The translations under genes were made by a program, and so were the position numbers. From NCBI GenBank assembly GCA_964545575.1, contig CAZJFL010000001.1, positions 294,178-358,177 of the forward strand: a stretch of DNA of 64,000 bases. Direction: 5' to 3'. Positions 3,001 through 48,999 of this stretch are shown one piece after another. The notes beneath the pieces were generated by a model, which did no database searches, was not told the origin of the DNA, and was given only the letters and a program-made list of their open reading frames with translations. Every line of letters begins with the position of its first letter. Positions within the stretch are counted from its first letter, which is position 1. This DNA is from an uncultured Planctomycetales bacterium (GTDB lineage: Bacteria; Omnitrophota; Gorgyraeia; Gygaellales; Profunditerraquicolaceae).

Positions 3001-6000
3001 GTTTTTGCTTTCCGTTTAATATTTCAAACTTTAATTTCTTAGCAGCATCTGACAGGCCTATCTCGAGTGCCTTCTGGGCATTAGTGCCTTTTACAAGAAT
3101 ACCAACGACTCCTTCTGCGCGGTATCCTGTGCGATCATCAAATATAGTTAAATATACCCCTTGGTTTTTACAAACACGGTTAAATATCTTCTGTAATAAC
3201 TTTACTTTTTTCTCTAACTTTTGCCCGCGTTCTCTAAATTTTATCTCTACATAAGCGCTATCCGGGGCTGCGTCTACCGCCGCGCTGTCGGCGCGGGTTC
3301 GCTGGCTGCGCTCTAAGGCCGCAGCCCTTTTTGCCTCAATGATTCTCCAAATCATAATTCCGGAGAGAATTAATGCAGCGATGCTCACTATAGGTAAGAG
3401 GCCGATGACAACCGTTGCGCCGGTGCTTGCCTGCGCCAGGCCAAAGGCGATAAGCAGGCCGGCAACCACTGCGCCTGCTCCGCGACGAGGAGTTAATTTA
3501 TTAATAAGGGCGCCGACGGGGGTCGTCCCGGAGGTATGGGCCGTCGGACAGCCCTCATTATTATTAATATATGCCCGGTCAGAATTATCGCTAGAGGCAT
3601 CTTGATACTCCTCAAGAGGTTCAATGATTATACTTACCTTCATCCCTTTTTCGCTGCCATACGCTACATCATCTTTTTCCACTTCCACCCGCGCTAGAGG
3701 ATATTGTTTCCTGAGTTCTCCTTCAAACTTTCCCATAAGGAACTTGTGGCAGGAATATTCTACCGTAATAATTATCTGGCCTTCACTGTAAGCGTAGTTT
3801 ATGGTGGTTATATCCGCCGCCTCTCTGTTGAATCCGGCCGGACCAATAATGAATTCGTCTATAAAAGAATCCCGGGCTTGATGAGAGAACCCGCATTGCG
3901 CCAGATGAAGAGGGATTCTCTTTAATGCTGGATAATAATCAGAGACATCCCCTAATGGCCGCGGGCCTTGATAGTGATCCGTATCTAAACCAATAAACCC
4001 TCTTCTATATTTATATTTATATTCTCCTTCTCCCCGGAATAATAATCCCTGCAAATTATTGACCTCATGCGGCTTGCCGCTGCCTTCGTGCAGGATAATC
4101 TCTACAAGATGATAACCGTGGTGGGACGGATTAATAAAGACGTATTTACCGCTCTGGTCTTTGCAGGCCACCAGCCTTCTTCCGCCGGTCTCTTCTTGGA
4201 ACATCTGGAATAACTTTCTTACTTGTTTATCCTTCACAATCACCTGATCTTCTATTTGCCGAGCAAGTTCAGTCAAGCCATGGCTTCGCGCAAACTTAGT
4301 CGCATAGGGCTTGTAGCGAAGATAAATCTGCTGCTCTCCCTTATTCTCGCTTAAATGCGGGAAGAGCTTATTAATCAAGTCATCTAATTTTTCTATCTCC
4401 TGCGCGGTAAGCCCGTCTCCGTCATCAGTCATGGCGCGGTCGTAATGTCTTGTAGCACCACCTATCATCTTGCGGTCAGTAACCATCTTACGCTGCTCTA
4501 TTAATCCCTTTAATCCATCTATAAATTTATCCGAGAAGCCCGTAGCGCTATCTTCAGCAAAATAATCAAGGATCGCCGCCTCTTCCAGCCCTACCCTCAC
4601 ACGGCCCTGTAACTCTTTATAAATCCTAATTATCTCCTCTTTAGACAGACGCCCTGCCTTAACTTTCTTTAAGAAATCTTTGATCTCTTTACTCCGGATG
4701 CAGAAATCTACTCCCACGAGGCTCCAATGGCAAACTTCATCGTATAAAGAAAAGCCCCTCACAACGGCTGTGATAATTTTCCTCATGACAAGAGGGATAT
4801 TTGCCTTAAAGAATTCAAGCTCTAACTCTCTTTTAATTCCTGCGTTATGTATTCTTCGGAAGATCCGCGTTTCCCTTGTCCGTTTTTGCTCATCTGCTCT
4901 GGCCAGTCCAGCTAATGCCCTCTTCTGCTTCCTTTGATATTCTCTCCGCTTGGCATCTTCTGCCGCCAGCGCAGCCGCGCCCACCACGCTTGCCGCCGCG
5001 TAGAGGCCGAGGCCGCCTAAACCTAATAAATTCTCCGGCGCCAGGAACCCTGCCTGCTTGGCCGCTGTGCCGCCGAGCATATAGTGGTCTAAGAAGTATG
5101 CCCCGCCGGCCAAAAGCGTCAGGCCGATACCGGCGATAGTTCTTCTGTTATTGCGTCCGGATTTTTTGGGTATATGCTGAAGCTGACGCGTCTTTCTGGG
5201 CTGTAATTTAACTTGTGGCCGCTCGACCACCCCAATTACTCTTCTAGGAGCTAATAGTTGCTGCACTTCTACCTTACCTTTAATATAGAAATATCCGGAG
5301 ATGCCGCAATCCACAAACCAGGCGTTGCGGACATTAAATTCCTTAATCATAAAATCCGCCATCTGCGTGGTGGTAGGGAAGCCGCCGAAAAGCTTACCGT
5401 AGGTGAGATTATCGGCATCAGTAGAGACTAAAACCAGGTTGCCGCGCTGATCCACGCCTACCAGGGATTTAGCACCTTCCCAATTTTTCTTAGCTACATT
5501 TTTACCGTCTTTTACTGCCTGCGCAAATACCCTTAAATTTACGGTATCTCCCTGCCGGGTGGTAAACTGCGCCGGGTAGCCGCATTGTTCGTTAATATCG
5601 CCACTAAAAGGAGCTTCGGACATCGCTACCACTACTGGCGCGCTATCGCCTAAGTTATAAGCATGTTGTAGGCCGGCAGCGGCAAAATTATATACCCCCG
5701 GTTTATATCGACTTAAATCGATAGTCGCGGTATGAAGCAACAGCTCGTTTAATGCGGGATAAACAGCATAATTTATCCCCTCACATATCTCTTGCTTCTT
5801 TATCGTGTCGTGCGGTAATTTAAATATCGCCCCGAGCAGCGCGGATATAAACGCTGCCGCCATGGCAAAATTGATGGCCGCGCGCAGGCTCATCCGCATG
5901 CTTGTGTATTTATAATGAGAAGTGCCTTTACCTTTAGTAGCCTCCGCTCTCCAAAAACCTATAAAGGCGAAGGCGTTAGCTACGATCCCTGCAACTAAGA

Positions 6001-9000
6001 TATATATTTTTGCGTTGGTGGTTAAGATATATGCTCCGGAACCACCCGCGATAAGGTACAGCAAAAACGCGCCGGCAAAATCGCCTGCTAGCGTGATAAT
6101 TGCGATGGTGCCGATAATACCTTGGAGTATACTGGTGGAAGAAGTGACCAGATGCTGCCTGATTAACCATCTGATTCCCAGGAATAAAAAGAGGGCTGAG
6201 ACAAGCAGCAGTCCTGTTATCAACAACGGCTTTATCAATACCATTGGCCCGCTTAATTCTCTAATCATCTGCGGCGGTGCGCTAGCGCGAACAAAAGCAA
6301 AGATAACTAATATTCCTAAGAATAATTTTGACAGGATTCTCGTGAATAATGTGACGGGTAAAATTACTTCTTGCGGATTCACTTCTTTATTATCAATTGG
6401 CGCCAGAGCCGGCGGAGCCCGGGGAGCCTGAGTAACCGCTATTATAGATAAAACCAGTGCCGTCAAAATCATGAATCCGCTGAAGGCTGTCTGCGGCGGG
6501 ATATGCAGCATGCGGGATGCCGCCGGCACGCCGAATAACCCGGCCGCACCGATGCCTAAAACAACTATTAATAATTCCATTAAGGCAAATCTCTTGTCGC
6601 CGGTATTAACTGGGACCGTAGCGGCCTGTTCTCCTTGAATATCTGCTAGCATCTTACGCCCATCCAAAACTTCTACGCCAAAATGCTGCTTTTCGCAAGT
6701 AATGATAACCTCGCAATGCGGTTCTTGTCCGAGCCTATGCAGTATTCTCACTAAATCTCTAAAGGTATCCGTATCGGTGTCGCACACCAATCCTAACTTC
6801 CGCTCTAACTCAATTCTCTGCTCCTCTGTCAGGTTATCGCTAAATTGTAATTCCAGCTCAAAATGCACCCGGGCGAGTATCTGTCTTTCCTGTAATAATC
6901 TCTTCATTTCAGGCAAGTCTAAATAAACCATGCTTCCCACCTGCTGTTTAGTCTGGGAGTCGATCATTACCGTCTTATTATTAAAAGGAACTAAGCCGCA
7001 TTCACCGCTATCGTGCCTTGCCGTAATATAACAACCATATTCAAGCACGCCCCTAAGGCCCTCTTCTTGCCACTGCGCTCTCTGTTTTGCGTCAATAAAA
7101 CCTTCATTTTCTAACAGGGTAGGTAAATCTATACATTTGCCTTTATCGTTCAAAAGGGTAATACGATGCACCCGGGATGCTCCCCATGCTGTATGTATAT
7201 GTCCTCTATAAATAATATTGAGATGCCTTACCGCAGCGCCTCCTATAATATCTACTATTTCTATGGCCTCTCTGCGTAAATCAATCGTCAATATTTTCTC
7301 CGGTTCTAATTCAGTACCTTCCTGCCTTACTAATTCGAAAGAGATGCTCTGGTTAAATTCGGCCCGCCCTTTTAAAGCCATCATAACGCTATTGAAAATT
7401 AAACTTGTATACCTTTCTGTATCAAATCCTCCTGCGATGGAAGCAGAATACCTGCGCCCTAAAACCCACATGGCGCTTCTAATATCTCCCTTAAGCTTCA
7501 TGTTCCGGGCGTATTTTATTCTGCTGGCAAGTTCATAGTCTACTGCAATATCGGTTCTTTCTGCCACCGCCACCGCGCCCAAGGCCACAGGCGCCAAGCC
7601 AAGCAGGAAAGCCCCATTATTGCCTGCAGGAGCTTTGCCTAATAAAGTAGCGACTAACAAGGCATCGCCGATAATCGCTGCCCAGAAAAGTATCGAGCCT
7701 ATCGGTGAATCCAGGAATGCCATTATTTTATTAAATAAAGCCTTGGCCGAGCCATCCAAGATGCCGTCCGTGCCGCAAAAACCTAAGCTTACCATCTTCT
7801 TCCGTACCGCCGCCGTCGCGCCAACGGCGCCAGTAAATTTTTCTTCCAGTGGCAACACAATATCAGCGGTATCGACTCTGGCGGCGGCCGTCTCTAGCAA
7901 GCCAGAGGTGGAAATGGTCACCGCTACATCCTTCCACCAAGAAGGCTCCGGCGATGGTTTCCAGTCCTCGTATAACGTAGTATTGCCAAAAAGCAACAGA
8001 TGCCTACCCGTCGGAGAAAATGCAAAGATCAGCGGAACTTCATTTTTTTCTTTCTTTACTACCACAAGATTGTTCAGACCCATAAAGATATTGTGCCCTT
8101 TGAGTTGCGCAGAAAGCAGAAATACCTCAAGGAATTCCTTAATTCCATTCCTGGATGAGCAAGGATCGATGCCTAGAACCATTGGGATAGAACTCTGCCA
8201 ATTGATCCGCGCCTCACCGTCTGCAGCCAAAACACGATGTACCTCTTCCAAGGCACGTAACTGGTCGATTAGATACTCAAATGTCCGTACCGACATAGCA
8301 AAATGGAACTTACCAGTCCAATCATCAGGCATATCTTCCGCTAAAGACTTTTTCAAAGTAATGACGCCTTCCTCTTTAAAGGCCTCCCATAATCCTGCAC
8401 CTAATTCATCTACTCCTATATTTTCATCAAAATCGAGGCTTATTCCATAAAATTGGTATTTTTGTTTCAGCAACTGCGCTAACCTGCGGGTCTTTTGGGA
8501 ATCCTGAAGAACCTCTTTAAATATATCTGGTCTACTTCTATTTTTCAGGTCTTTGGTCAGCTCGGGCCATTCTCCTTTTGCAAGTAAATTCTGCGCAATA
8601 TACGCAGCAAGGTAAAAAAGCGCATATCCTTTGCCTGCCCCTATATCCAAAATCCGCATTGGCTCCTCTTCCCGCAACGCTCCGGCTGTAATCAAATCCT
8701 TTCTCCTCTTCATCAAAAGCGTATCACAATAAAGCCTGTATCCTTCTTTATCAATACCAAGTATGTAAGAATCATAATATTCATTATTAACACTTGCCTG
8801 AGATCTAAAGGGAAGCCTCGCCCCTCCCCCCAGTACCGTTCTAATATCCCTAACATCTCCTTGGTATGCAGCGACGTAATTATCCGCTGCAAAGCTCTGC
8901 AAAGCCCCCCTCGTTGAATCTCGGTCGGTATTCTTTTGACCACTATACCATCTCGCCACTACTCTATTTAGATTGCCCGCGGCCCTAAAAGGAATAACGG

Positions 9001-12000
9001 TTCTTTGCGACCCGCTAAAGGTTCTTATAGGAAACGGGTAAAAACGATCCCTGTATGCCTTTTCTAGTGTCCCTAAATCTCTCACTCCGTAGAAATCTAC
9101 GACTCTAGATCTTAATCTTCTCTTTGCTCTTTCATCGCCTGCAATTTTACCGAGTATATCTCTTGCTTCTTGGACTAATTTTGTTTCATCTCCGGCTAAC
9201 CTGGTCATTGCTTCGGCAATAGCTGCGAAGATGTCATATACATCTAAACCTAAAGGTCGATACTTATCAAAACGATCTATCTCAAAATGCTCGAGATAAA
9301 TTCTATGAACGTTGGCGTCTATTATAGACGGGGTTTCTGGCCATTTCATATTGCGTATCCGGTTAAATCTATCGATCTCTGCGCTAAGAGACGCTGGCAG
9401 TTGAGTGGCCTTTCCTTCGGCAAACTCTAATAGGCCTTCTGCTTCTTTTATTTTTATTTCTATCTCTTCTCCTTCGGCTTCTTCTTTTTTTGACATACCG
9501 AAAGCACCGGTAGGAATAAGGATGTTGCCATCATGGATAGCTGTCTTGAGTAACTCCATTGCCGTATATTTATCGGATTCTTTTTCGTAGTCAATGGGCC
9601 CTTTCCTCAATTTGTACACTTCGTACACTGCCAGTAATTTCGTTGCTTGTATTATCATTTGATACATGCCCGCTTTTGTAATAATAGTCCCGACAATTAA
9701 ACCCAGAGACGCCAGGCTAAGCGGGGAATTATGCGTGGCTGCGGGAGCTTTACCTAATAAAGTAGCGACTAACAAGGCACCGCCGATAATCGCTGCCCAG
9801 ATGATTGCAGCTCCGGGTAAAGTGTCCCAGAAAGATACGCGGGAAGAACGAGCGGCCCTATTTCCTCCGCTAGATAGAGCCGTTCGTCCCGTTGATCTTG
9901 TAGACTGGAATGCTACCGCGAACAGCAGCAAGACGAGCAAGAATTGTATCGCGGTGTGGGCCAGTGAGCTGTTCCCAGGAATCAGCCCGGCCGTTACGTG
10001 TGTAAACATTACCGGTAGCGTTGTTGATAAGAAATATCCTGAGATGGCCGTTACCGTTCTCGCGTGCAGCAGCAAAGATGGTAGAATCTTGACTAAACTC
10101 GACAATGTGGTCAAACTCCAGTGCATCAAACTTGACAGGGCACATGGTACACCTCCTTCTCTAATTAGTTGCCCTGCAGCCCCTACGTGGGTCGCCTCGG
10201 AGGTGAGGTACGCAAAGACTGCAGGAACAACTAAAATAGCCGCAAACACTACACCTGCCACGGTAAGTAGGAATTGCGGCTGGGTTAATAAAGCCTTGAA
10301 TGTCTTAACTATATTAGTAACGACTGCGCCAAAGTTCGGCGCGCGGGCAGCTCCCACTAAAGCGTGAATCTTTGCCCTTAATAATTGGGAACGGACGAGG
10401 AATGTAGCGGTAACGCCGATGGCTAAAGCGGCTAAACCAACAACTACCGGCAAACCGATTCCTGTGCCAAACAGCCACCCAGCTAAACCCAAGGCAACCG
10501 GCGTGCAATTGGCAGCCGGCACAGCAGGAGCGGTAGGCGCCTTTTCTCTTAACTCTGTAATCTGTAAGAATATTAATACTGCTTCTTTTCTGGTGAGGAT
10601 CAAATTATGACGGGGTTCTTTGCCCGGAGAAACAACAGTGATTGCGTATTTATCGTAATTTATTCCTGTTTCTTTTTGTCTACCTATCTCTTCCTGTGTC
10701 AAAACCTCTTTCCATTCTGACCATGTTCTTCTTTCTCCCGGCTGGGAAACTGAATCTTCCGGCTGCGGAATCATAGCCGGCTGAACTTTCTTTGTAGGAT
10801 TAGCTACCTTGGATTTAATGTTTACATACACCTGTCCAAGATGATTATCTCTGCTGAATCTAACGATTGCGTACAATGCGATAGCAACAGCTATGCCAAG
10901 AACCAGGTATAGCAATAATCTGACATCTGCAACGGAATTCTCAATAACGTCGCTCTTTGCCGCGATGCTGAATAATGATAGTGCTGCTACGGGAAGGATT
11001 CTAACAAAACGTCCGGCAGTCGGCGGGCTGCGGCCTTCGTAAGATACGTGCTCATCATTCTTCTGTGCTTTAGCCCTCAACATCTTTATGCCATAATAAG
11101 CCAAATTGAATAAAACAATTGCTATTACCGCGATAAGCGCTGCTTTATTGCTGGCGAACCCGAAACCAACTGCGCAACCTGACAAAGCCACCGGCATCGC
11201 AACCGGCTCAACCGCGCCGGTCTGAAGCGGAACTTTAGATTCTTCCAGTTTGCCGCTGGGGCTGATAGAGTAAACTTCTTGGATGTTCTTTGAGTCCTTT
11301 GAAATGTTTACTTTTACGATTCTGCCGGAAACCTCAAAATTAACCCTCTGGCCTTTATCAATAACTTTTACTCCGTCTTTGCCGAACACCTTTCTGAATT
11401 CCGGATTTAAAGCATCCTCGTATGCGTGACCGGATGCAGAAATCAAATTAATAACCTTTGCCTCTTCCGGCTTCATGCCCTGCCCTCTTAATATCTGCGC
11501 CAGATTACTGAAATATACACGGTCGTTTCTACGCGTAGGCCAATATGCTGTGCCGCGATGCTCTATCTGCCAAGGGCAAAGATGAATCACAGCGGCTTTA
11601 TCTTCAAACACAATCACCGCCCCTACGCATTGATATTCAAGCAGCGCGCTCGTCTTAACCACGCGCCCATCTGAAAGTGAGAATATTTTTACGAGATTTT
11701 CTGTTACGATGGTATCTTTTGCTATTAGACTGTCTGGATTATTTATATTATATGTAACTGGCAGCGTAATTGAATCAGCCTGCGGCAGGGCGCCGACATT
11801 CAACTCTGCTCCATAAGCGGGATTACCCAATGGACTACGGGCAACATCGCGCACAAAATTCAGCAGCGGGTTACCCTGCGGCCTGACCGCGCCGGTCTTT
11901 TTCGGCGCAGGAGCCTCTGTTCCATTATCGAAGACATGTTGCATAAAGAATTCCCTGCGGTCTTCGGAAGAACCCTCGTTGCTTATGTTGTAACCGGCAG

Positions 12001-30000: not shown

Positions 30001-33000
30001 ACTGTCTGTCCCCATACTCTCCGCTATATTGCGGAGCACTTAAGGCATATTTATTGTATAATACCAGCGCTACATTAGTGGTAGCATTAATCCCGCCCAT
30101 GATTAGCCCGGTTTTAAGCGCTTCTGTGGCGAATTTAGCGGCTGCGGCATCAAAGCTAGCAGAACCAGCAAGCGTGGTACCGGGACCGGCGGCTATGCCC
30201 AGAGTAGCCAAAATCACTATTGCTCTTCCGCCGGTATACAGTATATCAAAACCGCTGCGGGTATATTTTTCCGGAGCCCGCCCAAAATTTAAAGTCCGTT
30301 GCCCCCAATAACTAAATTGTCCTGGAATTTTAATACCTGTGTCAACAAACAAAGGAGCATTTCTAACAATTCCTATCGTACGCAAAATAAGTTGGGGAAT
30401 AAATACTGGGTTGGGTAAATGCAAGCTAGTTTGAATCCGATCACCCTTTAAATCCGTCCAAAAAGTATTTACGTCATCCAGGCTTTGTGAGTAGGCAGAA
30501 AGCGAGCCGTTCATGCTCAGCCAAACCTTATTGAGCAACCTGTTCTCCTTATTCTCAAATAATGAACTGTTTTTTCTTTTCTGTTCGGTAAAAAGGGTGT
30601 CCAGCCTCTTTAATAATGTAGCGGGGTCCTTTATGTCTAACTGCCTGAGCATATCCTGTGTCTGCTGATTATACCCCTTGGCTACATCTTGATAGTTAGT
30701 TACGCCAAAAACATAGGCATCCCGGTAGCCAGGCGCCGCATCAGAAGCTAAGGGGCCGATTGCTGAGTACTGGGTTATAGTGTTTGCCAAAGCGAGTTTC
30801 TGGCCCACAACTCCTTCCACATCCATATAAATCTCGGATAAATCTTTTGCTGAAACTTGACCATTGCTGCCTATTGTTTGCTTGGAATTACGCGCATTAT
30901 ATTCTAGGATGGCTGTCTTAAGAACAGGTGGTAAGCTATTTATCTTTTGGCTCTTCCCGCTATTGTAAACATTGCTTACCGCTGCCATCTCCTGTGATAA
31001 ATTACCGTAGTATTCCCCCAGCGCATTGTGTAGCGAGCTTAATTGCTGTGCCTGAGTAGCTGGGGGATTAATAAATGTTTGGTAGCGAGCATTAAATAAT
31101 TCTTCATCGAGTAGGGGATCTGTTCGCATAAGTTGATTAAATCCGTCCATCCTCCCCTCCGCTGCTTTTGCTCTCCAGGAAAGACCGACTAAGGTATTGC
31201 TGTTGCCAACCATTGTTTCCTGCCGCTGGGCTTCTTCGAGTTGCTGGTTATTTATTTTTTCCGTTACCCCTACTCCCTGATTTAAAAACGATATCCGTAG
31301 CTTAGCGGTAGTCGATTGTAAATCGTCATTCCAATCCTTATAGGTTATCCCGGTAAAATCCCCTGCGCCTATCGTCTTTAGGTAAGCTGTATAGTTACGA
31401 AATGCTAGCGCAAAATCACCAAAAGAAAATTCCTTTCTAGTTGTAGCACTAAAAGGATCAGCCCCGGCTTTAACAGTGAACGGGACCAGCGCAGATGAAG
31501 TTGTGCCTACCTTGCGTCCCAGCCAGGATGATTTATTTCCCATTAAATTCTGGCGGCGTGAAGCGGTTTCCCACAGCGTCATGGACACAGTATACATTAC
31601 TGAATATCGTTTTAAGTCCTCCTCGCCGGCCTTAACATCTGGTGAATCTGACTTTAAGTTATTACGTAGATTCTCTAATCTACCCAGTAATTTTCTGAAG
31701 TCGATATTATTATCATTACCGCTTTGCTTGATTGATTTTTCCAAATCATCAATGCGTTTTAATAAGTAGTTCACTACTGCGATTTTATTTGGAGCGTTTA
31801 AAGCGCTGTTTACAGCCATACTAGAAGTCGTCCAGTTCTTGGTCTGGGCAAATACTTCAAAAAGCCGGCTGGCGTTGACTGACTCATCGGAAGTAAAAAT
31901 AGATACCCAGGGCGAAGAATTATTAAATCTCTCTACCATGGTCGTAGCTTTCCCGGCCCCTCCGGGAGCTTTCCCACCGCCCTTTAGGTTAATGCTCCAG
32001 TAGGCAAAAGGCGTGCCGGGCAAAATCGCAGCATTACCTAAATTAGAACCCTGACCTTCTTCTTGCCATTCTATCGGCACCGAGAACGCTTCGCCGTCCC
32101 ATTTCCCGAAATATTTCTTTTCGCTCAAAGGCAATATTTTATCGTTGATCAGGAAGCTATATTTGGCTATTTTATCTAACTGTTCATATTTAAGTTCTAG
32201 GGTCTTAGGCATATCTTTCTTGAAATCATCCAGAGAAATCCCCAATTCTACCAGGGCGGCATTTAGTAATGCCCCTTTTGCTCCGTCGGAATTCAACAGC
32301 CCCATTATCTCGTCCTGCGAATGGTTTTCCAGAGTGACCTTTAAGCTGTTAAACGCCAAAAGATATTTACTTACCGCCCCTAAAGATAAGTCTCCTAATC
32401 CTCTGGCTATCGGAGCAGTATTGCCGCGGTAATAAACATTCTGCTCACCGGTAGTTTTGTCCTGGAGAGTAACCACATCGTTCAATTTATAGCCAATCTG
32501 GCGGGTGATCATGCCGCCGGCATCCTTAAATCTAAAATAGGTGGTTTCCGGCAGCCAAATCACGCTGTTGACATCAAAACGCGGCGCGCCTTCTTTGCTG
32601 CGCACAACATAACTTTCCTTAGGCGCTGCCTGTCCCTGGCTCATCGGCTCTAAATATTTCGGGCCTCCAGCGAACTCGTAGCTATCCGGCCCCTGCGTGG
32701 TAAGAATCATCCTTCTTCCAATCGCTCCTGACTGGCCAAAAATATCCCTGGCTGCTCCTGTATATCCGCTTAATGGCGCCAGGCCGGTGCCCAAGACTGT
32801 TTCGCCGGTCAAAAGATCCTGTTGAGTTTCGTTCCAATTTTGGCCTTTGGGCATTAAAATACCGAAACTCTTATTGCCCTTTAGAGAAACCATTTCCCAG
32901 TCGCCGTAGGTGACATGGAAAGTAAGCGGGCCTCCGGTTCCTAATCCTTCCGAGGTTTCGCCATATTGGTCCTGGCCCTGATATCCAAAACCCATCAGCC

Positions 33001-36000
33001 CGCGGGAAAGAATAGCTACACCATTGGAAGAAACGTTTTTTGAACTGCCTTTATCATAGTTTCCCCGGCTGCCGCTAGCAGGACTACCGGCGTTAAGCTC
33101 AATCTGCGGATGCCTTTCGCCGATCAGAGCGCCTTTCCAAAGCGGCACGATTTCTTCTATGCCACCGCTAAGTTTATTAGTTACTTTCGATTCCGGCAAA
33201 GTTGCAGCACTTCCAGCGACTACTCTGCCGGTTATGGGATCCCGAACTACGCCGGCATAATCTCCCTTATTAATATCACCCTTACCTTTATAACGGTAGA
33301 ATAATACATCGTAGCGCGGATCCAGCGTGTTCACCGCCATAGGATTATCACTGCTGCCAAATTCCATCTTCGCTACGTCTTTTCCTAAAAATGTGTTGCC
33401 GTCGTAATAAGTATTCAAGATGCTGACGTCTCCGTAAATAGATGGCCGGGTGAGGCTGGCGTCAGAAAAAGGATGTTCCGCAGAAGCTCCGCCGATGCGC
33501 ATGCCGCCGGCAATGCTCTGCTGCATATCCAGGTCGCCATTATTATATACATCCTCGCCGAACTTGACCTGGGTGTATCTGGTGGTGCGGAAATTAGAAA
33601 CTACATATTGCTTGACCTGATAATCTTTGGTTTGCGGGAAAAGGTCCTGCGTGCCGGGTGAAACGGTGGTAAAATCATAGCCGCCGGGGATTTCTAGTTT
33701 GGAACCTATACCTAAATTCTCATAAGGACGTAAGCCTTTGCCTGATAAAACTAAAGAAACGCTTCCGGTAACCAGATGATTTCCCGCGGCGCTATGGTCT
33801 ATTACTCGCATCCGGCTGTTTCTTCCTTCCCAGGCTGACCCCCGCACATTAATTGCTTTCTGAGGATTCTGGGTATCCTCTCCTCCGTAAAATTGCGTTT
33901 CTCCGCTCTGGGCATTATTGGTGCTTGCGGCAAAACCCGAAGCCTCCATTGCCTGGGCATATTCTTCGGGATTGGTGCTGATATATCTGGTTTCGTGGGC
34001 AATGCCGTCTTTGGTGATAGTGCCGACTAACTCCAAGGCATATTTTGCTTTGCCAAAAGAATTATTACTGCCGCCCTCGGTGACTGCGCCCAGCCTTAAG
34101 TCGGCGTAGCCAGGGGATTTCTCCCAAACGCCAGCTATTTTTTCAAAGGTTACGAATTTATTATCCAAGTCTGAGCCGATGCCTACCAGCCCGATTTTAT
34201 TCTGAGCGATTAATTTTCTTACTGCGCCGACAGTCTCAGCGCCTTTTATGCCCCAAGCCTCTGAGGAATTAATCAACGGGTTTCCCAACTTATCGGTAAA
34301 CGGCTTTCCTGCCTCATCGGTGATTGTTTTCTCCAGCCTTCTCCAGACCATCGGATTGCTGCGGTCAAAATGTAATACGGTGGTAATTACTTTGGCTAAT
34401 TGAGAATCTCCCAGCACATCTACTGCCTGAATGGGAGCATATTCTACGGCTAAATTTTTGCTGTATGACTCAGGATGCAAATTGCCTTTGTAGGACACAT
34501 TAGCTTTTTGCTGCGGGTCTAAAGAATACATCCAGAAGCCGGTCAAGGGATCCGGCGCTCCCTGCTGGTTATAGCTTAAATTGCTGCCATAGGTAATATC
34601 TACGTGATTATCAACGACCGCTACCTGGCCTTTTAAAATTCCTCTGCGAGGCGCGCCGTCAACCAGCCAGCCGGAATTCTTATTCGCTAAATCTCTGCTC
34701 AAGGCGCCCACATCCGCCACTGTGCCGCCTACTTTCACTGTCCTTCCGTCGGCGCTGACCGCTCCTAATTTAGTTAGGCCAAAACTCTGGGCAGGATTAT
34801 TAAAACTAGGCGTAACCTCTGCCTCATTACGGACGGTCTTGCCAAAATCATACCTTACTTCCCCGAAAGCCCAGCCGTTAAAATGAATGCCGCCGGACTG
34901 GTCAATCATTAAACCTGCTTGTTGAAATTCGGGTTGCGCTTTCGGCGCTTCTAAGGGAAGAGAAACTTTTCCAGAAGAGGTTTGTTTCATCTCTACGCCG
35001 GCGAAAACCAAACCTTCGGGCTGAGCCTTTAATTTGTTAGTATAATCTTTGACTAATTGGGCGGCTGCTCCCCAATCTGCGGGCCCTGAGCCTGAGGAAG
35101 AAGCCTGCAGTAAATACCCGGCTACTTGTTCTCCTGAAACAATATAGCCGGTTTCTCTCAATGTCCGGTCTAAATCCTTTACTGCCTGTCTGTATTGTGT
35201 TGGGTCTTGGGAAGCATTAACCGGCCTAACCTCACTGCCGCTACCCACAACCAAGGTTTTATAAGTCCGCCCGGGTTTATCTATATCTCTTGCCTGCTCC
35301 ATCCCGGGTAAACTTGTGGTTTCCAATGGATTATCTAAATCTATTGGCCTGCCGGGCTCTAGCGCGTCATTAAGACGCTGAGAGTCAACGGTATATACCT
35401 TCCTAGTCAGGCCAGGATGCATTTTGCCTGCATTGGCTTGCTCTTTAAATTTGCTTAACTCTTTGTCATTCGTTAATCTGCCCTCTTTATTTAAATCAAA
35501 AGTCTGTGCATCTTTTGGCCGCGTAGATAACCGAGCAATTTCGCTCAGCTTGCCATTTTCATCAAAACTAAAATGCTTGCCGGTAAATATTATCCCGTCA
35601 ATATTCCCATCTCCCACATAGCGCCGGCCAGCCTCCATGCTTTTTCCTTCTGCCAGCTGGACAATAAAATCTTCTTCTATTCTTGCCCGGGTAAATCTGC
35701 CATTAGCAAGCCCCATCTCTCCGTACATTGATAAGCTAGGCCGCAGGCTTATTTTACCTTGGGAATCTTGGACTAAACCCAAGCCTGCGGGGTTATAATT
35801 GAAAGACACCTGCGAAATAGCCGTGGCATCGGGGCTGGCTGTTTTTTCCTCTAATGCGCCCCAGGTCTTAGGCCCGACTATGCCGTCCGGCTTAAGTCCA
35901 TTTGCGCTCTGAAAATCCGTAATCGCTTTCTTAGTCAGCGAACCTTTTATCCCGTCAGGCAGATAGGGATAAAAACCTGCTTTATTTAAGCTAGCTTGAA

Positions 36001-39000
36001 TTTGTCTAGCGGTAAGATTATCTGCTGAATATGCAGGCTCCGTTCCCCTTGTTCCGGCGGTGTTGCTAAAGCTACCCCACAAAATAACATCTTCCGGTTT
36101 ACCGGTAGGATTAAACTTTATGTTCCCGACAATGTAATCTATATCCCGGGCAGGCATTTCCTGTGTAGCAGCCAAAGCCAGGTAAGGCAGAAGGTCGCGA
36201 CCGACTTTCTTTTGTAAGGCATAAATTTTATTCTCCGGCTGCTTTTCCAACCCTTTTAAGGCATCGGCAAAAATTTTCCCTGTTCCCGAAATAGTCCTCT
36301 GAATGCCGGTCGTGCTACTTAGGCCATCTACATCGCTATACTGTTTCTCGATGATCTCTTGCGGGCTGATGCCAAAGGCCGCCGGAGTATTGTCAAAAGC
36401 TACGGTTACATATCCCGTAGCCGAGGAGCCGCTTTTTACTCCCTCAAGCACATCCAGAGTATTCATCTTTTTGTACTCTGTCTTTCTAATCTTATCGTCT
36501 TGGATACTGAGCATGCTGGGCTTCTCGGAATAACCCGGAGTAATATTGCGCCAGTTCGTCCCTAACGTCTCCTCTAATGCTAAATCTACTGCTTCGCCAT
36601 AACCGGTTCTTGACTCGGTCTTTTGTCCTACTAAGACATTTTTATTAAAGGTCTGGGAAGTCTGTATTGTTTTCATGTAAGTCCACCCAGTATTTCCGCG
36701 CAGAGAAGCATCCCTGCCTTTTACCGGCACTGCCCCGCCTTCGTTATACCAGTAAAGCCGCTTTCTATCGGAAGCCTTGATGCTCCCGGGTAGACCTTTA
36801 CCCTTCTCTGCTTCTTGATCTAAAATGTCCTTTCCGCTCCGCAAAGAGGTAGACCCGAAAATATAGATTTCTGAAGGGGTCTCCCGAGCCGCTACCGCTA
36901 CGTCACGGCTCATTGTTGCTTCAGCCGTAGAGCGTTGCCTGGTGCCTGTCTCTATTTCTTCTAAGGTAGTGGTCTGAGAAACCTTGAGGCGGTCCGGAAC
37001 GCTGACTTCCCGAACTATTACTTGTGTCTCGCCGGAATTTCCTTTCAGCGTCTCTGTCTTTTTGCCAAAGCTTACTTTAGAATCGGAAACGTCGGCTACC
37101 TTAATAGACGGCTTAATTGGCGCGCCGGGCAAAGAAACAACTTGCGGCTTAAGCTTAATTTCATTGGATCTGGTAGTGTGATCCTGCAAGGCGGCTTCAG
37201 CTAAAACAAGGGCGACATCTATATTTGGCCCTGTTGCGTCCGACATAACCATCTGCCTGATATCCTCCCACTGTTGTGCGGAAAATGCCGGGGAAACTCC
37301 AGCGTGCTTGGCGATACCAAACCCTGCTGCTTCGTTTACCGCCAGAGAAATAATTCCTGTAGCGAGGAAGAAGTCCTTGCTTTTACCCGCCTTCTTTGCA
37401 ATAACGCTGCTGATAAACTCCGTGGCAGAGTCTTTTGCAGTTATTTCTCCGCCGACCACGCTTACGATAGGATCGGGGCCGCTGATGCCTGGCAATTTAA
37501 AATCCATATTTCTGCCGGATATGGCGAATACCCTGTGGCCGTTTATCGCCGCCATTGCCAATAGCTTTGTGCCCCCCAGCGGCGCTGCATCTTTAAAAAT
37601 AAGCTTGTAACTATCATAAGAATATACGGTCGGGTTGCTTCCTCTGACTAAAGCCGCATAAATAAAATATGGACTCTCCAGCAATTTATTTTTATCAAGC
37701 TTCCACATACTCATGCTCTTGCGTCCGCTGGTTATTCCCTCGGCTATCTCCGGCATCCAAGTCGCTATGTAATGCTGATCGGCATCAAAATAGCGCTTAA
37801 ACTGGCCATCGCCCCAACCAAATCTTCCTCTCTCTACCGCCTCCCTGATCAACGGCAGGTCCGGCTGCCAGCCAGGCAGGTTCCATTGCACAAATTGTGC
37901 CGCTACGGGATTATTCTGAACTTTTTTATGCAAGATTCCGGTAGGATTTTTACCTATCGTCACCAGATAGAGCGCATGCTTTTTGGTGACTCCGGAAACA
38001 TCTATGGTAAAGGTATCCTTTGCGTCTTCATCAGATAGGTCAGCTTGCAACACTCCCATAGGAAGTTTGTCGCTAAGCTGGTCATTAAGCTTTTTCATGT
38101 CGAGCGGCTCAAATAACTCGCCTATTAGTTCCTCAGTTTTATCTTTATCCTCGGAAACAAGCACTATTGTCTTACTGTCTTCCCCGAGCTTTATGCGCTT
38201 GTTTGGATTTGATTTTTGGAGTTCAACTAACACCTTGATCTTTTGCACTTCGGAAGAACCTGTCAAATCAGGAGACTTCAAAATCTCATCTATCTTTGCG
38301 ATGTTTATTGTATCTTTTATCTTTTGGTAGCCGGTCACCGGGTTATGATTATCAAATATATTCCAGACAGTCCTCGCCAGCCTCCATAAATCAGAAGCGG
38401 CGGTGTAAGTAAACTCGCTTGCGTTCTGCGCCGCGGCTGAATGGAGAGTGGCTGCGCCGTATTCAATCATCGCATACTTCGGAAAAAGACTCTCCAAGTT
38501 TCCGTCCTTTACAAAATCTCTCCAGGCAGTCTGATAATCGCTATACTTTTCGGCGCGCTTTCTTGATTCGGAATCATGAAGATCATAGTCATAAGGTTTA
38601 AGGTAAAGCGGGTCTTTGTCTTTGTCAAAGGGCAGGTAACCCATCGCCCGCATCATCCGGTCGGCATTAGCTTGAAAATTGTCTATCCCCGCCATTTCAT
38701 TGACCTTGTTGATATACATATTTAGCGTCCAGCCTGCCATGCCTTCGGTATAAGCAGGAGATGTCCTACCTAAAGTGCCGTAATTGACAATGACTTTCTC
38801 CACAAAATTATCTTTGAAGTTATTGAGAATATTACCCCAATTCCCATGCCAGCCAGTCTGGTAGAGGACATTAACCAGAGCCGATCCAGAGTAGGCGATA
38901 AGCGCCATATCACTGCGTGTCAGGCCCCAGTCATTGCGGTATACCCCGTCCTCGCATCTTTTATATGTCCCGGCGAATTTGGTCAAGGTGGAATCGAGTA

Positions 39001-40859
39001 ACCACGTGCTTCCGGCACCGATTGCGCTATCCACTAATAGCGGCACTACCTTAACCGGCTGGCCGGCAGAGATCGCGCCCCCGACCCCACCGATAAAGGA
39101 ACCGGCAAACTCTCCCAAGCTCCGGGAGAAACTGTTACGGTTCGTCCATTCTTCGCGGTCTTCTTCGCTTAAATCCATCCATGTCGGCCGGCCATTTACG
39201 CTCTTATACTTAGGAAGCGCAGACTTTCTGTTCAAAAAATTTTCATAATCCTTATAATCTATACCCAAGCCGGCTATTTTCCCCAGAGATGAAGATACAA
39301 ACTGTACTTCTTTAATTGGGGCGGCGAGCCCGCGCCAAAAATCAGAGGAATTCCCTTTAGGCACAATCCCTACGAGTGCGCCGTCCTTCTTCCCCCAATA
39401 CCTGGTAAGCCCTGCTGAAGAAATAAAGCCGGAGGTTAAGCCATACGATAAAAAATCCGCGGTAAAGTTAGCTGTCTCAAGGGCAAGTTCAGGATTCTTT
39501 TTATAGAAAGCAGAGTCCTTTATTGACAGGTAAGCTATATATCTGGCTCCTGCTTTAAGTGCGCCCATTCCTAACCCTACCTGTAAACCCCGCGTAAAGG
39601 ACGATTGAGCGTTCCAAACGGCATCTTTAATGTGCATAAATTGCTTTGGCTCTATTTTGGTTGTGACGCCGTAAGAAAAAGCTGTAGTTGCCAGTGTGCT
39701 GATGGCTTGGACGAGCCCCGGATTCATTCCTGTTTTGGATAACCCATAAGTTGCTATCGTGCCTAATTGGCCGGTAAACTGCGCAACCGCTAAATCAGTG
39801 ATTCCTCCGCTGCAAATACCGGGTATAGCAGTTAACACCGTCATCCCTAAGTTGATTGCCGTTGCCCTCAAGTCTGGCTGTTGGAAAAGCGGGCTTAAAT
39901 CCGGGTACTTGCCTCTGTATCTCCTTGCCCCTAAAATAAGTTTGGCTTCACTATCAGCGATGGCGGTTAAGCCGACCGCCTCTTTTTTCTCGCTTAAAAT
40001 ATATCCGGAAAATCCTTCAAGGAACTTCTCGCTGGGCAGGAATTCTTCTTTATGCTCATCAATAAAATAAACCTTATCTCCAGAAATGCGGGCAACTAAG
40101 ACATAGTGATCGCCTTTTAAGTGGGCGATAAAAGGGACTGTCCCCGACAAGTCTATTAGTGTGTTATTCTTAGGGGACTGTCCCTGATTGAAGTCTATTT
40201 TTGCCGGGTAGAGTTTGTGGCCAAAGAATGCTGAAGCTTGAGATAAGGCAAATAATGAGTTTTTAATCACTTCCGGGTTACCTTCAGGCTTGACTACCCC
40301 GTTTAAAATATCCACGGTTAAGGCTAAAACCGCGATATCCTGCTCGGCTACCTGCGCGCCGGCATAAGTTAAATAATCATATAGCGCTTTTGTGCCGCAG
40401 GGCCTGCCTTTTAACCATTCGTAAATCTCATCTATTCGCTGCTTGCTGATGTTTAAGGGCTTTTCTAATTTTAAGGTGAGTTCCGGAGATAACCTGATAG
40501 CATTGACGGACTTACCGGAAATATCTTTAAGGATGTTCCTCACCGCCAGCGGAATGTCCAAACTGCGGGTATCTTTAAGATAGGCCGGGGCAAAAGTATT
40601 GAGTGTACCAACCGCAGGCCTCTGCCAGAGCACGCGCCAGTCATATTCTACTGCTTGAGCTACCTGCTGAGGAATAAAAATAGCCACTACTACAAAGGCT
40701 ACTACCCTGATCCAGGCCTTAAAGTTGGAGTGAAAATGCGGCTTCTCGTTCTTTCCCGTAAAAGAACTTACAGCAGAATCAGAAACCTCTACGGCTTCTC
40801 CGATCCTGCTTCCGCGGGATATTTCTTCTAATTTTTCTGTACGGGTTGCTTTTTCCATT
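1..40859 (-). CDS. Giant multidomain, multi-TM protein. The 3' end is outside the window. There are 13,589 or more codons in one frame from 40768 to 2, plus a 46-codon N-terminal ORF (40859..40722) in the adjacent frame, implying a frameshift or indel near 40720-40745.
   Basis: All plus-strand ORFs in 1-40.8 kb are short low-complexity antisense shadows. No complete minus-strand ORF of 60 aa or more is listed, so the coding frame has no stop before the window edge. I checked frame phase (codon top coordinate mod 3 = 1) at 40195, 35992, 16222, 8659, 2611 and 4, and all agree. ATG 40859 follows the upstream gene stop (40862) but hits TAA at 40719-40721. The long frame opens after a TAA at 40769-40771, and the two frames read together give a sensible N-terminus followed by a TM helix. 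The translated protein has recognisable motifs of several enzyme families (listed as separate features). Confidence 0.8.
1300..2640 (-). other. SecA-like DEAD-type motor (NBD) module of the giant protein
   Basis: Translation KDFAGTKSTVILPGLAYLVVKRQNLKVFAVVCNDHFAYDQGKRAAE...DVIYGQISTFNFDYQKLDLL...RWVIMADEADRTLVAEAFTPHIISQ...ILTLVGNRGVNILL lines up with four SecA blocks. These are SecA [77 protein letters not shown] and TNMAGRGTDI. I verified the DEAD block on the DNA (2180-2260). Confidence 0.65.
5280..5790 (-). other. Phosphodiester-glycosidase (NAGPA/DUF2233)-like module of the giant protein
   Basis: Translation ...AKSLVGVDQRGNLVLVSTDADNLTYGKLFGGFPTTTQMADFMIKEFNVRNAWFVDCGISGYFYIKGK resembles the family C-terminal block (...aIGid.dGrLllvvvDG...G.tl.ElA.lm..lGa.dAlNLDGGGSs). 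It matches at motif level only. Confidence 0.4.
7630..7690. repeat. Dispersed internal repeat, copy 1 (its partner is at 9743-9803)
   Basis: ggagctttgcctaataaagtagcgactaacaaggcatcgccgataatcgctgcccaga nearly matches 9743-9803 (ggagctttacctaataaagtagcgactaacaaggcaccgccgataatcgctgcccaga). Both encode WAAIIG.ALLVATLLGKAP in TM-rich parts of the giant protein, which suggests a duplicated membrane module. Confidence 0.8.
8190..8660 (-). other. Class I SAM-dependent methyltransferase-like module of the giant protein
   Basis: Motif I reads EEPMRILDIGAGKGYALFY (hh[DE]hGxGxG). Downstream lies FHFAMSVRTFEYLIDQLRALEEVHRVLAADGEARINW (post-I/II/III-like). The frame checks at 8659. Confidence 0.55.
9743..9803. 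repeat. Dispersed internal repeat, copy 2 (its partner is at 7630-7690)
   Basis: See the 7630-7690 feature. Confidence 0.8.
15690..16100 (-). other. Site-2-protease / peptidase M50-like membrane module of the giant protein, with an atypical HExxxH spacing
   Basis: Translation ...GIIGASVLGHELAGHGLVARIFGRKTSGVELGVLGG...LVYAAGPLVSLGLMAAGLAL...NLFTTVNLGMAVFNLLPLKPLDGGTIF. Compare RseP/SpoIVFB-type HEFGHfwvARrcG and the NLLPipvLDGG motif. I read the DNA codon by codon: cac gaa tta gcc ggg cat gives HELAGH, one residue longer than the canonical HExxH. Confidence 0.6.
19229..19756. repeat. Tandem duplication of about 264 bp (2 copies, roughly 90% identical) inside the giant ORF, encoding a duplicated coiled-coil segment
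   Basis: gccaaaatcttctgatta...ttcttccaccggcctgattaacgcctgcgcact...gcgggct(g/a)cttccagct...gcaaagcttccttctgct recurs with a period of about 264 bp (copy starts near 19231 and 19495). Both copies are in frame and translate to ...QSEILLAQARKQKEALL..LEAARREKQDILD.E..VLAD..SAQALIRPVEEKI.RIE..LKE.NQKILA.E. Confidence 0.8.
35850..35995 (-). other. Peptidoglycan-binding (PG_binding_1-like) module of the giant protein
   Basis: Translation LTARQIQASLNKAGFYPYLPDGIKGSLTKKAITDFQSANGLKPDGIVGPKTWGAL fits the PG_binding_1 consensus (L...GY.....DG.FG..T..A...FQ...GL..DG.vGp.Tw..L). Confidence 0.65.
40090..40420 (-). other. Peptidase C39-like (bacteriocin-processing / papain-like) domain of the giant protein
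   Basis: Translation reads ...RPCGTKALYDYLTYAG...(about 90 aa)...GDHYVLVARISGDKVYFIDEHKE. This matches the C39 Cys motif (CG.A.L..YYG-like) and the His-box (HYVV..I.gdkvyI.DP-like) in the right order and spacing. A TM helix lies just before it. Confidence 0.5.
40134..40184. repeat. Palindrome pair gggactgtcccc (40134-40145) and ggggactgtccc (40173-40184), in frame inside the giant ORF 5' region
   Basis: The element gggactgtccccgacaRgtct.ttattag.gt.tt.ttaggggactgtccctg is nearly identical at 42755-42806. Here it encodes ...QGQSPKNNTLIDLSGTVPF.... Confidence 0.85.
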
Positions 40860-40861
40860 TT

Positions 40862-43691: not shown

Positions 43692-44576
43692 TTAAAATCC
43701 TTGTCCTTTTAAACCAAAACCGCCCTGCATAAATTGGATAAGGATAGGGCCGCCGACAATAATTGCCACTACCGGCATGATGAAGAAGATAAGGGGAAAG
43801 AGCATCTTAATCGGGGCTTGTAAAGCCAGGCGTTCACCTCTCTGGAACCTTTGACGGCGGGTTTCTTCGCCTAAGGCATTCAACACATCATAAACCGGAG
43901 TGCCCATACGGTCCGCAGAGACTAAGGTATTCACTAGAGAAAAAACCTCCGTAATATTTAAACGCCTGCTCATCGCCTTTAATGCCTCCTGCCGTGACTT
44001 GCCTACTTTAATTTCCTGAGTAACCATACTTAATTCCTTAATTAGGGGGCTGGGCTTTGAACGCTGGAGCACCCAATCTAGGCCTTGCATAAAATCTAGC
44101 CCTCCGCCGACGCAGAGAGTAAGCAAGTCGATCACATCAGGCAATACCTTTATAATAATCCGGTTACGCTTCTGAATACGTATCTTTAGATAAATATCCG
44201 GCAATAAAAATCCGATGCCAAAAATAATCAAACCCCACAAAGGCTCAAACCTTTTCAGCGTCAAATATACCCCTAAAAATAAACCCAGCATTAATAATTC
44301 TTTTATCCCTAAGTAATCTTCGGGCAGCAAATTTATCTCGGCGGATGACAATTTATCCATTACTGCCTGCCGTCTTAGCTTAGATAAAATAATCCGGTTA
44401 AGGGGAAAAAGCGGGCGGGTAAAAAATAAAGGGACCTTTATGAATTCATCCTTGGGGGATAATTTCGGGGCTTGCGGCTTCAGCTCGGGAGACAACTGCA
44501 TAGGCCGGCGCAAGACAAAAAAGAGCGAAATACTTAAGATCCCGCTAAATAGCAATACGTAGATTAAAACCGGCAT
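43692..44576 (-). CDS. tadC: TadC-like (T2SS-F / GspF domain) pilus inner-membrane protein. The likely start is ATG 44576 (MPVLIYVLL...), overlapping the tadB stop as TAATG with a GGAGGTG RBS.
   Basis: T2SSF-type block LPDVIDLLTLCVGGGLDFMQGLDWV...VSADRMGTPVYDVLNALGEE with flanking TM helices. The ORF track extends it to 44639. Confidence 0.8.
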   Translation of the reverse strand: MPVLIYVLLFSGILSISLFFVLRRPMQLSPELKPQAPKLSPKDEFIKVPLFFTRPLFPLNRIILSKLRRQAVMDKLSSAEINLLPEDYLGIKELLMLGLFLGVYLTLKRFEPLWGLIIFGIGFLLPDIYLKIRIQKRNRIIIKVLPDVIDLLTLCVGGGLDFMQGLDWVLQRSKPSPLIKELSMVTQEIKVGKSRQEALKAMSRRLNITEVFSLVNTLVSADRMGTPVYDVLNALGEETRRQRFQRGERLALQAPIKMLFPLIFFIMPVVAIIVGGPILIQFMQGGFGLKGQGF

Positions 44577-45424: not shown

Positions 45425-45451
45425 TGCCGGATAATTCTCCTAATTTTTCTG

Positions 45452-45631
45452 TTAGGGATGCGTTGTATAGGGATCGAATTGCCTACCGTGGCCAAAGGTA
45501 TCTCCCACTTCCCGCATCTTGCCTGAAATAGCCCGCTTCAGGTATATCGCCATCCCAATTAATGCTACCACAATTATGAGGATTAGGAAAGCGTATTCTA
45601 TTGAAATAAACGCCTTCTTGGCATTTTTCAT
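45452..45631 (-). CDS. flp: Flp-family pilin paralogue (59 aa, not in the ORF track). Its ATG at 45631 overlaps the upstream stop as ATGA.
   Basis: Translation MKNAKKAFISIEYAFLILIIVVALIGMAIYLKRAISGKMREVGDTFGHGRQFDPYTTHP. It shares the xxIEY + hydrophobic helix + YLKR..G motif with the tandem flp array. Confidence 0.65.
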   Translation of the reverse strand: MKNAKKAFISIEYAFLILIIVVALIGMAIYLKRAISGKMREVGDTFGHGRQFDPYTTHP

Positions 45632-48596: not shown

Positions 48597-48999
48597 ATAT
48601 ATTCAGCTTCGGATAATCCTGCTCATTCTGTTCATCGACTATCCCCGGCGTAGAGTCAGGAGGCGTAACATAGCGCCATGCCTTGCAAATGTAAGGGCGG
48701 TTACAAGGATCTGGCGGTTGTATTTCCCTTCCGTTTAGGACGTCTAAACACTTAGTGCACACGAGCTTGGGTGTGGACACCTCTACGCTTCCTGCGGCAA
48801 CAGCTGTAGCTTCATAATCCACTTGTCGCTGAACCATCCGGCTGCTCAGCCAGACAAATATCCTTGCTGTAGCTACCAGCAAAAGCAGCATAAGAAAAAT
48901 ACTAATACTCAGCTCCAAGGTAACCTGCGCCTTTCTCTGGCTCCTGCGGCCGGCTACGGCGGTAGAAAATAATAAACTCTTCTTCGCCCTAACACACAT
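48571..48999 (-). CDS. TadE-like pseudopilin (142 aa)
   Basis: The N-terminus RRSQRKAQVTLELSISIFLMLLLLVATARI is a TadE-like N-terminal segment. Confidence 0.65.
   Translation of the reverse strand: MCVRAKKSLLFSTAVAGRRSQRKAQVTLELSISIFLMLLLLVATARIFVWLSSRMVQRQVDYEATAVAAGSVEVSTPKLVCTKCLDVLNGREIQPPDPCNRPYICKAWRYVTPPDSTPGIVDEQNEQDYPKLNIFENWPKGK

Follow-up and report, generated by a model that had tools for sequence, protein, structure and literature searches.

The 64,000-nucleotide stretch of DNA analysed here (the window; part of contig CAZJFL010000001.1, from an assembly labelled as an uncultured Planctomycetales bacterium) carries on its minus strand what we identify with high confidence as the first 40.9 kb, counted from the 5' end, of one giant Omnitrophota gene, encoding a membrane-anchored, multi-module protein of the Omnitrophota giant class ('Archaeovorin'-like, multi-enzyme type). 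The giant genes of Omnitrophota rank with the largest coding sequences known. As read from its sequence, the protein is laid out as a conserved head, a variable, lineage-specific body and a conserved unit made of a SecA-like module and transmembrane (TM) helices. An original prediction, made from the letters of the window, had described a mosaic of modules along one polypeptide at 5280-40420: a C39-like peptidase (40090-40420), a peptidoglycan (PG)-binding module (35850-35995), a site-2 protease (S2P)-like module (15690-16100), an S-adenosylmethionine (SAM)-dependent methyltransferase-like module (8190-8660), a NAGPA/DUF2233-like module (5280-5790) and a SecA-like module (1300-2640). The mosaic and its order held at profile level, as Pfam tiling of the stop-free frame recovered all six modules at these places; systematic profile searches had been proposed as the refuting test, and none of the six families escaped them. 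The extent was drawn too short, since a start at 5280 leaves out the SecA-like module that was itself listed; the object occupies 2-40860 and continues past the window.

The class to which we assign this gene was described by West-Roberts et al. (10.1101/2023.11.21.568195) and by Nielsen and Lui (10.64898/2026.06.07.730766), with the Velamenicoccus archaeovorus giant protein as its type. The published traits are an N-terminal C39 domain, a domain-poor N-terminal region, many TM helices, SecA_DEAD and PP_bind domains without scaffold/wing, and an upstream locus of the type II secretion system (T2SS)/Tad type with class III signal peptides. The published 'Archaeovorin' set further includes glycosyltransferases, HEAT/TPR repeats, NUDIX and glycolytic enzymes, with PilZ and SBP-transporter genes downstream; beta-helix tubules have been reported as well (10.1101/2023.11.21.568195). 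We base the assignment on the match between these two descriptions and the succession of head, variable body and SecA-like/TM unit. Giant proteins were defined by a length of more than 30,000 amino acids (aa) in the former study (10.1101/2023.11.21.568195) and of at least 10,000 aa in the latter (10.64898/2026.06.07.730766); with at least 13,619 codons up to the window edge that cuts it, the present gene passes the lower threshold.

The minus-strand frame running from window position 40861 to position 2 comprises 13,620 codons with no stop, a run whose chance probability in random sequence we estimate at about 10^-284. The ATG at 40858, which lies 4 bases past the stop of the preceding open reading frame (ORF), is the only start candidate ahead of the first hydrophobic segment. 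GC content is uniform and GC skew negative along the whole length. Independent assemblies (ENA, JGI, Logan) are 99.97-100% identical to the window at 39025-60467, which takes in the first ~1.8 kb of the gene, and the ENA contig k141_273047 encodes a 4,848-aa product of it that overruns the end of the fetched locus; the same population is present in ERZ27248895, JGI 3300028299 and SRR8437217. Modules were called by Pfam tiling in tiles of 1,000 aa, and NCBIfam tiling added none beyond those found with Pfam; TM helices were called with home-made Kyte-Doolittle (KD) and Goldman-Engelman-Steitz (GES) hydrophobicity scans, not with DeepTMHMM. The features of the gene, all on the minus strand and with aa positions in K-first numbering unless noted, are as follows.

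2..40860, minus strand: giant ORF with its ATG at 40858-40860, 13,619 codons or more, C-terminus past window position 1
40646..40717, minus strand: N-terminal hydrophobic signal-anchor, aa ~48-71 in Met1 numbering (KD and GES scans)
39962..40564, minus strand: C39 cysteine-peptidase module (Pfam PF03412, alignment, AlphaFold2, Foldseek)
38417..39874, minus strand: conserved head extension, all-alpha and G/S/T/A-rich, aa ~330-815, of no known family
35852..36007, minus strand: PG_binding_1 domain, aa 1619-1670 (Pfam E 5.5e-17, 62 bits, profile positions 6-57 of 57)
15539..16165, minus strand: M50/S2P-like intramembrane module (Pfam PF02163)
9668..11209, minus strand: cluster of ~11-12 TM helices, aa 9885-10398 (hydrophobicity scans; no family match)
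8213..8695, minus strand: class I SAM-methyltransferase-like module, aa 10723-10883, motif I ILDIGAGKG at nucleotides (nt) 8627-8653
5819..6577, minus strand: cluster of 7-8 TM helices, aa 11429-11681 (hydrophobicity scans)
5258..5521, minus strand: NAGPA/DUF2233 (phosphodiester glycosidase)-like module, aa 11781-11868 (Pfam PF09992, partial)
2846..3481, minus strand: two TM hairpins with K/R-rich flanks (aa 12461-12504, aa 12628-12672), followed by the SecA-like module
581..2644, minus strand: SecA-like ATPase module, with a nucleotide-binding domain 1 (NBD1) containing the DEAD box (nt 2225-2236), a preprotein-crosslinking domain (PPXD) and a weak NBD2
89..559, minus strand: TM bundle after the SecA-like module, aa 13435-13591 (hydrophobicity scans), conserved together with that module

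The head is the part best connected to other proteins. With the N-terminal 999 aa as query we found 51 homologous proteins; in the 50 strong matches the best local alignments cover 21-80% of the query at 34-64% identity; those bearing names are nearly all annotated as partial C39 domain proteins of Candidatus Omnitrophota/Omnitrophica. In an alignment of 47 sequences the first ~340 aa are 45-63% identical, the signal-anchor is conserved, and the catalytic residues Cys154 (within PCGTK, nt 40388-40402) and His251 (within GDHYV, nt 40100-40114) are invariant. The Pfam match to Peptidase_C39 (nt 39983-40279, aa 195-293) has an E-value of 3e-6 and 27.5 bits, above the gathering score of 22. An AlphaFold2 model of the head reached a mean pLDDT of 75.7, with core blocks mostly at 72-96, and its top Foldseek matches in the PDB are C39 double-glycine peptidase domains of the PCAT/ComA kind (TM-score 0.70, E 1.7e-5), the matches including 6mpz, 3b79, 5xe8 and PCAT1. 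Sequence and model together place the module in PF03412, with a predicted papain-like fold and an intact Cys-His dyad. Because the signal-anchor precedes it, the C39 module is probably extracytoplasmic, and the K/R bias at the anchor weakly favours an N-in orientation. The extension that follows, of ~500 aa, is homologous to about 8-10 relatives, and this homology stops at aa ~815 even where the relatives' sequences continue. AlphaFold2 renders it as long helices throughout (pLDDT 64); the model of aa 300-830 gave no significant PDB fold match, its weak matches all being polytopic membrane proteins.

The ~7,400 aa after the head are lineage-specific, poor in cysteine and almost devoid of strongly hydrophobic helices, and they contain a single domain of PG-binding type. 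That domain, PG_binding_1, conforms to the profile of the three-helix peptidoglycan-binding domain and sits within the Cys-poor N-terminal stretch; the NCBIfam matches at this place, to SleB and PG hydrolases, are restricted to the PG-binding part of those models. Cysteines number about 12 in aa 1-9500 and about 32 in the last 4,120 aa (9501-13620), a roughly six-fold depletion of the first part that is consistent with the two parts lying in different compartments. Strong hydrophobicity is concentrated at the other end: apart from the N-terminal anchor, the ~38 strongly hydrophobic helices all lie after aa 8230, in the last ~5,400 aa. The TM bundles proposed as separators of the modules are therefore real and confined to this final part; the coiled coils proposed alongside them were rejected as general spacers, because a crude heptad test found only two coiled-coil-like segments of ~40 aa (0.6% of residues against ~0.1% in shuffles). 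A repeat-protein architecture was also discarded, self-BLAST showing the protein to be essentially non-repetitive with one 58-aa internal duplicate. Its copies (window 9719-9892 and 7604-7777, minus strand; aa 10324-10381 and 11029-11086; 45% identity) are TM hairpins that flank the loop containing the methyltransferase. A 9-nt tandem repeat, TAACTAATT, is present in 5.8 copies (79% matches) at window 14950-15001, within the ORF.

Besides the SecA-like module, three enzyme-like modules are embedded among the TM helices. Peptidase_M50 is matched at nt 15695-16060 (aa 8268-8389) with an E-value of 1e-11 and 45 bits, above the gathering score of 27. The third-ligand LDG motif is kept in NLLPLKPLDGG (PLDGG at nt 15713-15727), and the zinc motif reads HELAGH (nt 16019-16036), which aligned to the PDB entry 3b4r and to SpoIVFB is an in-frame, one-residue insertion in HExxH. 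The canonical motif is present in 14/14 of the nearest S2P homologues as well as in 3b4r and SpoIVFB, and the insertion in no relative examined. These nearest homologues are free-standing S2Ps with E-values of only ~1e-8; the database searched held no giant-protein relatives of the module. The methyltransferase-like module is matched by Methyltransf_23 (E 2.9e-5) and by Methyltransf_11 (23.8 bits, gathering score 21.2), five other methyltransferase models falling below their cut-offs; it carries a ~70-aa insertion after motif I, and its matches to methyltransferases in the PDB are weak. The NAGPA-like match (E 4e-6; 27.6 bits, gathering score 25) spans only profile positions 71-153 of 169, and the module has no PDB sequence match.

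The SecA-like module is matched at about nt 1285-2530 (aa 12778-13192) by SecA_DEAD (E 2.6e-14) and SecA_PP_bind (E 4e-7), and SecA sequences in the PDB match it at E 1e-13. The DEAD box and the segment 'AEAFTPHIIS' are present. The NBD2 model P-loop_SecA reaches 18 bits, below its gathering score of 27; SecA_SW (scaffold/wing) gave no match at E<=1 here or in relatives; and NCBIfam SecA models score 72-83 bits against an equivalog cut-off of 800, so that the module falls short of the full SecA domain set (NBD1, PPXD, NBD2 and the helical scaffold and wing domains) and of an equivalog score. Its Walker A motif reads AGTKST (nt 2576-2593), with a threonine inserted in frame into the canonical GxxxxGK[ST]; GK[ST] is found in 5/5 of the closest genomic relatives and in 104/106 representatives, and the inserted threonine in no relative examined. 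The M50 and SecA-like modules may thus be catalytically impaired or non-canonical in the present member. Both hairpins that precede the SecA-like module have a common 'GAGAVV...LLPI' pattern.

Related loci show which parts of this architecture are kept. A scan of JGI metagenomes with the head alignment returned 178 relatives, and 80 loci were retained; 45 with at least 8 kb upstream served for synteny counts and 29 with at least 9 kb downstream for open-frame counts. In 28/29 the frame is uninterrupted as far as the locus extends (at least 3,000 aa), and no homology to the giant protein beyond aa 830 was found in these metagenome loci. In three relatives the C39 domain is followed by ~3,300 aa in which little is recognisable, two having no other match and the third (L044) a single Metallophos domain (aa ~3011-3226). 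Searches from the far end were sparser. The SecA-like module had only four matches at E<1e-30 among 1.84 billion representatives, the best being 39% identical and part of a 3,077-aa fragment. The C-terminal 1,221 aa found no homologue in a search that was probably saturated by TM-rich words; the last 500 aa had no match in the JGI metagenomes, and a genome-contig scan with a single SecA-like protein as query had none either. By tblastn, five GTDB contigs (L005-L009) carry relatives that align over aa ~12,700-13,620 with 33-40% identity; two are labelled Omnitrophota/Omnitrophica and three 'uncultured Planctomycetales', and the window itself holds no marker gene. With the names of the head homologues, this points strongly, if indirectly, to an Omnitrophota host. 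Four of the five are single open frames throughout, and in the fifth (L009) the giant frame extends over 16.7 kb, with a further large ORF behind it. The modules upstream of the relatives' SecA-like unit differ, with PEP-utilizers, ICMT/PEMT and TPR in one and PGK and signal peptidase II in another; PEP-utilizers, PGK and TPR occur in L005 and L009. Conservation is therefore limited to two parts: the C39 head, at 45-63% identity, and the unit formed by the SecA-like module and its TM bundle, at 33-40%.

Two side observations concern the ends of these relatives. In L009 (16546-21921, plus strand) the giant frame ends ~1,400 aa past the equivalent of window position 1, and an ORF of more than 1,790 aa comes next. 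The closest SecA-like relative (P0001) extends ~1,900 aa beyond the module, and its end resembles by eye a GH5 glycoside hydrolase ('FINEPEW'), with no Pfam call at E<=1e-4.

The machine had also been described as self-contained, a view that the neighbourhood does not support: a conserved pilus operon of the Tad/T2SS-like type ends with the giant gene. In 41/45 related loci both T2SSF genes have homologues upstream in the same orientation, and the same arrangement is seen on two 140-kb contigs (L010 and L011). The neighbouring features in the window are the following.

43012-43601, minus strand: ParE toxin/Phd-YefM antitoxin pair, with the T2SSF genes on one side and, on the other, two unannotated ORFs located ahead of the giant gene
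43692..53575, minus strand: Tad/T2SS-like pilus cluster with two T2SSF genes, an 835-aa TadE/G-like gene and ~9 small pilin-like ORFs (Pfam)
53883-56204, minus strand: 773-aa ORF with a ~250-aa K/E/A-rich stretch made of degenerate 24- and 36-nt tandem repeats, no family assigned
56420-57559, plus strand: AAA_14/DUF4143 ATPase gene, between the pilus cluster and the two-partner-secretion (TPS) gene
58153-63999, plus strand: another large ORF (more than 1,949 aa) that runs past the window end, with an N-terminal TPS secretion domain of the two-partner-secretion exoprotein type (E 8e-23)

The ~9 small ORFs (window 50460-53575, minus strand; 50-136 aa) are paralogous and begin with K(K/G)(A/G)QS/TxxEY followed by a hydrophobic helix, N-termini that read as class-III (archaeal/Tad-type) prepilin signals. 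We considered the C39 head as a processor of these neighbours and rejected the idea, since their N-termini are of this prepilin type and not double-glycine leaders. No prepilin peptidase, T2SSE ATPase or GspD/GspE homologue and no tRNA gene was found in the window. Homologues of the 773-aa ORF lie upstream of the giant gene in 17/45 related loci, and the ParE/Phd pair is missing at the equivalent place in L011. On k141_273047 a 3,226-aa product at the matching place, presumably that of the TPS gene, overruns the end of the fetched locus.

Our explanation as a whole, a giant membrane-anchored Omnitrophota protein together with a proposed function, has in our estimate a probability of about 0.6. 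Its functional part, according to which the protein would be stapled to the membrane as a surface or envelope component co-expressed with the Tad-like pilus, is tentative and in our judgement somewhat short of an even chance. In this proposal the anchor would direct the long N-terminal region outward, into the periplasm or onto the cell surface. Wall polymers of the cell itself, of a host or of prey would there be contacted by the PG-binding domain and perhaps also by the NAGPA-like glycosidase. TM hairpins of the polytopic C-terminal third would staple the protein to the cytoplasmic membrane in such a way that the modules in need of SAM or ATP remain on the cytoplasmic side; the SecA-like module, acting in cis or together with SecYEG, would assist in threading the long extracytoplasmic stretches of its own protein or would just dock it or mark its insertion, and the C39 head would process the giant protein or a partner. 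The idea of an envelope-spanning machine acting on peptidoglycan or on a partner or prey surface is plausible and matches the published hypothesis for the class; it draws on indirect evidence, namely PG_binding_1 in a Cys-poor stretch, the NAGPA-like module, the predicted cytoplasmic methyltransferase and SecA-like loops and the link to the pilus operon. The placement of modules on either side of the membrane could be predicted in part. Positive-inside analysis found that K/R-rich-flanked TM hairpins bracket the methyltransferase loop, whose hairpins are homologous, and the SecA-like module, so both loops are predicted to lie in the cytoplasm, in agreement with their cofactor needs.

Several points weigh against this explanation. 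In a TopPred-like parity model the number of TM helices around the NAGPA-like and M50 modules leaves their side ambiguous, and a charge-consistent model with the NAGPA-like loop outside exists at the cost of two ad hoc adjustments. The C39 domains of peptidase-containing ABC transporters (PCATs) act in the cytoplasm, and the orientation of the anchor here would put the C39 module outside. The helical region at aa 330-815 could itself be membrane-embedded, as the GES scan found several moderately hydrophobic helices in it. An active translocation motor or protease is doubtful in this member because neither the Walker A motif (AGTKST) nor the zinc motif (HELAGH) has its canonical form. The glycosyltransferase, HEAT, TPR, NUDIX and glycolytic modules of the class were not found here, none of these Pfam families matching within aa 1-13,620, the visible part of the gene. 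Finally, the C-terminal ~8,800 aa have no counterpart in any other collection searched, so that the contiguity of the ORF over this part rests on the present assembly alone.

Among the alternatives, the one that survives best, and which we still regard as unlikely, is that the ORF is translated once as a polyprotein precursor and cut by the C39 head, the S2P-like module or both into separate membrane and secreted proteins. West-Roberts et al. raised the same possibility (10.1101/2023.11.21.568195), and it would suit a head that surpasses all other parts in conservation and keeps its catalytic dyad invariant, a body that past the head is not conserved, as expected of exchangeable cargo, and TM hairpins between modules that could anchor individual products; yet no cleavage sites were identified, Gly-Gly pairs being too common to inform in a protein with 8.5% glycine, the M50 zinc motif is disrupted, and C39 would lie across the membrane from the cytoplasmic modules. 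We regard as a long shot the related idea that head and Tad-like operon form a dedicated export-and-processing device in which the body is threaded by the in-cis SecA-like motor and cut into surface effectors. If true, it would represent a bacterial 'secreted polyprotein' system with cargo swapped freely between lineages.

Improbable, too, is a membrane-tethered scaffold facing the cytoplasm, in which most of the polypeptide, the N-terminal 8,000 aa included, would stay inside and organise enzymes with no contact to wall or prey. The strong PG_binding_1 match at aa 1619-1670 would have no ligand in the cytoplasm, whatever the weakness of the charge bias at the anchor; NAGPA-type domains are normally extracytoplasmic, which also counts against a scaffold, and the ~6-fold cysteine depletion of aa 1-9500 and the linkage to a pilus/secretion operon have to be set against the cytoplasmic location of PCAT C39 domains and the cofactors that the methyltransferase and SecA-like modules require from the cytoplasm. 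It may be added on its side that it corresponds to the 'TM-only' reading of Nielsen and Lui, and that 46% of long Omnitrophota proteins are predicted to be TM-only (10.64898/2026.06.07.730766). A fusion of several genes or strains by a chimeric join or faulty gene calling, for which the lack of counterparts of the C-terminal two-thirds in the other collections searched might speak, is very improbable in view of the stop-free frame with its even GC and skew, the near-identical independent assemblies of its first ~1.8 kb and the long product on the ENA contig, the relatives with whole contigs or loci in single open frames, and the complete long-read genomes with such giant genes that have been published.

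The giant membrane-anchored mosaic is a type already described, and the established view of the class is unchanged. Specific to this member are the M50-like, NAGPA-like and PG_binding_1 modules, a head that in some of the relatives is conserved as far as aa ~815, and the two motif insertions. The wall-related modules of the body (PG_binding_1, NAGPA-like) lend support to the hypothesis of action on a cell wall or prey surface; Walker A and HExxH, each with its in-frame insertion, caution against taking every Pfam match in giant proteins for an active enzyme. The present member offers a compact, testable picture of giant Omnitrophota genes.

Compared with known systems, the C39 module has the fold, the Pfam family and the Cys-His dyad in common with the peptidase-containing ABC transporters PCAT1, ComA and LahT; it differs in having no fused ABC transporter and, as read from the sequence, no oxyanion Gln at the usual position. 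The M50 module has a TM core and an NxxPxxxLDG motif like the site-2 proteases MjS2P (3b4r) and SpoIVFB and, unlike them, no PDZ or CBS domain, an embedding in a giant protein, and HELAGH in place of HExxH. Like the SecA translocase, the SecA-like module has an NBD1 with DEAD box and 'EAxTPxIIS' segment, a PPXD inserted in NBD1 and an NBD2-like region, whereas it has none of the helical scaffold, wing and C-terminal domains and is set between TM hairpins of a giant protein. Among the Omnitrophota giants themselves, the present protein is set apart by the one-residue insertions in Walker A and HExxH and by M50/S2P-like, NAGPA-like and PG_binding_1 modules that go unmentioned in the main text of West-Roberts et al. 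and of Nielsen and Lui. It resembles them in its ORF of more than 10,000 aa, its signal or anchor followed by C39, its long domain-poor N-terminal stretch and its dozens of TM helices, in its divergent SecA_DEAD and PP_bind domains without scaffold/wing and its methyltransferase and peptidase modules, and in its upstream T2SS/Tad-like locus with class-III genes, its closest homologues annotated as Omnitrophota and its lineage-unique body.

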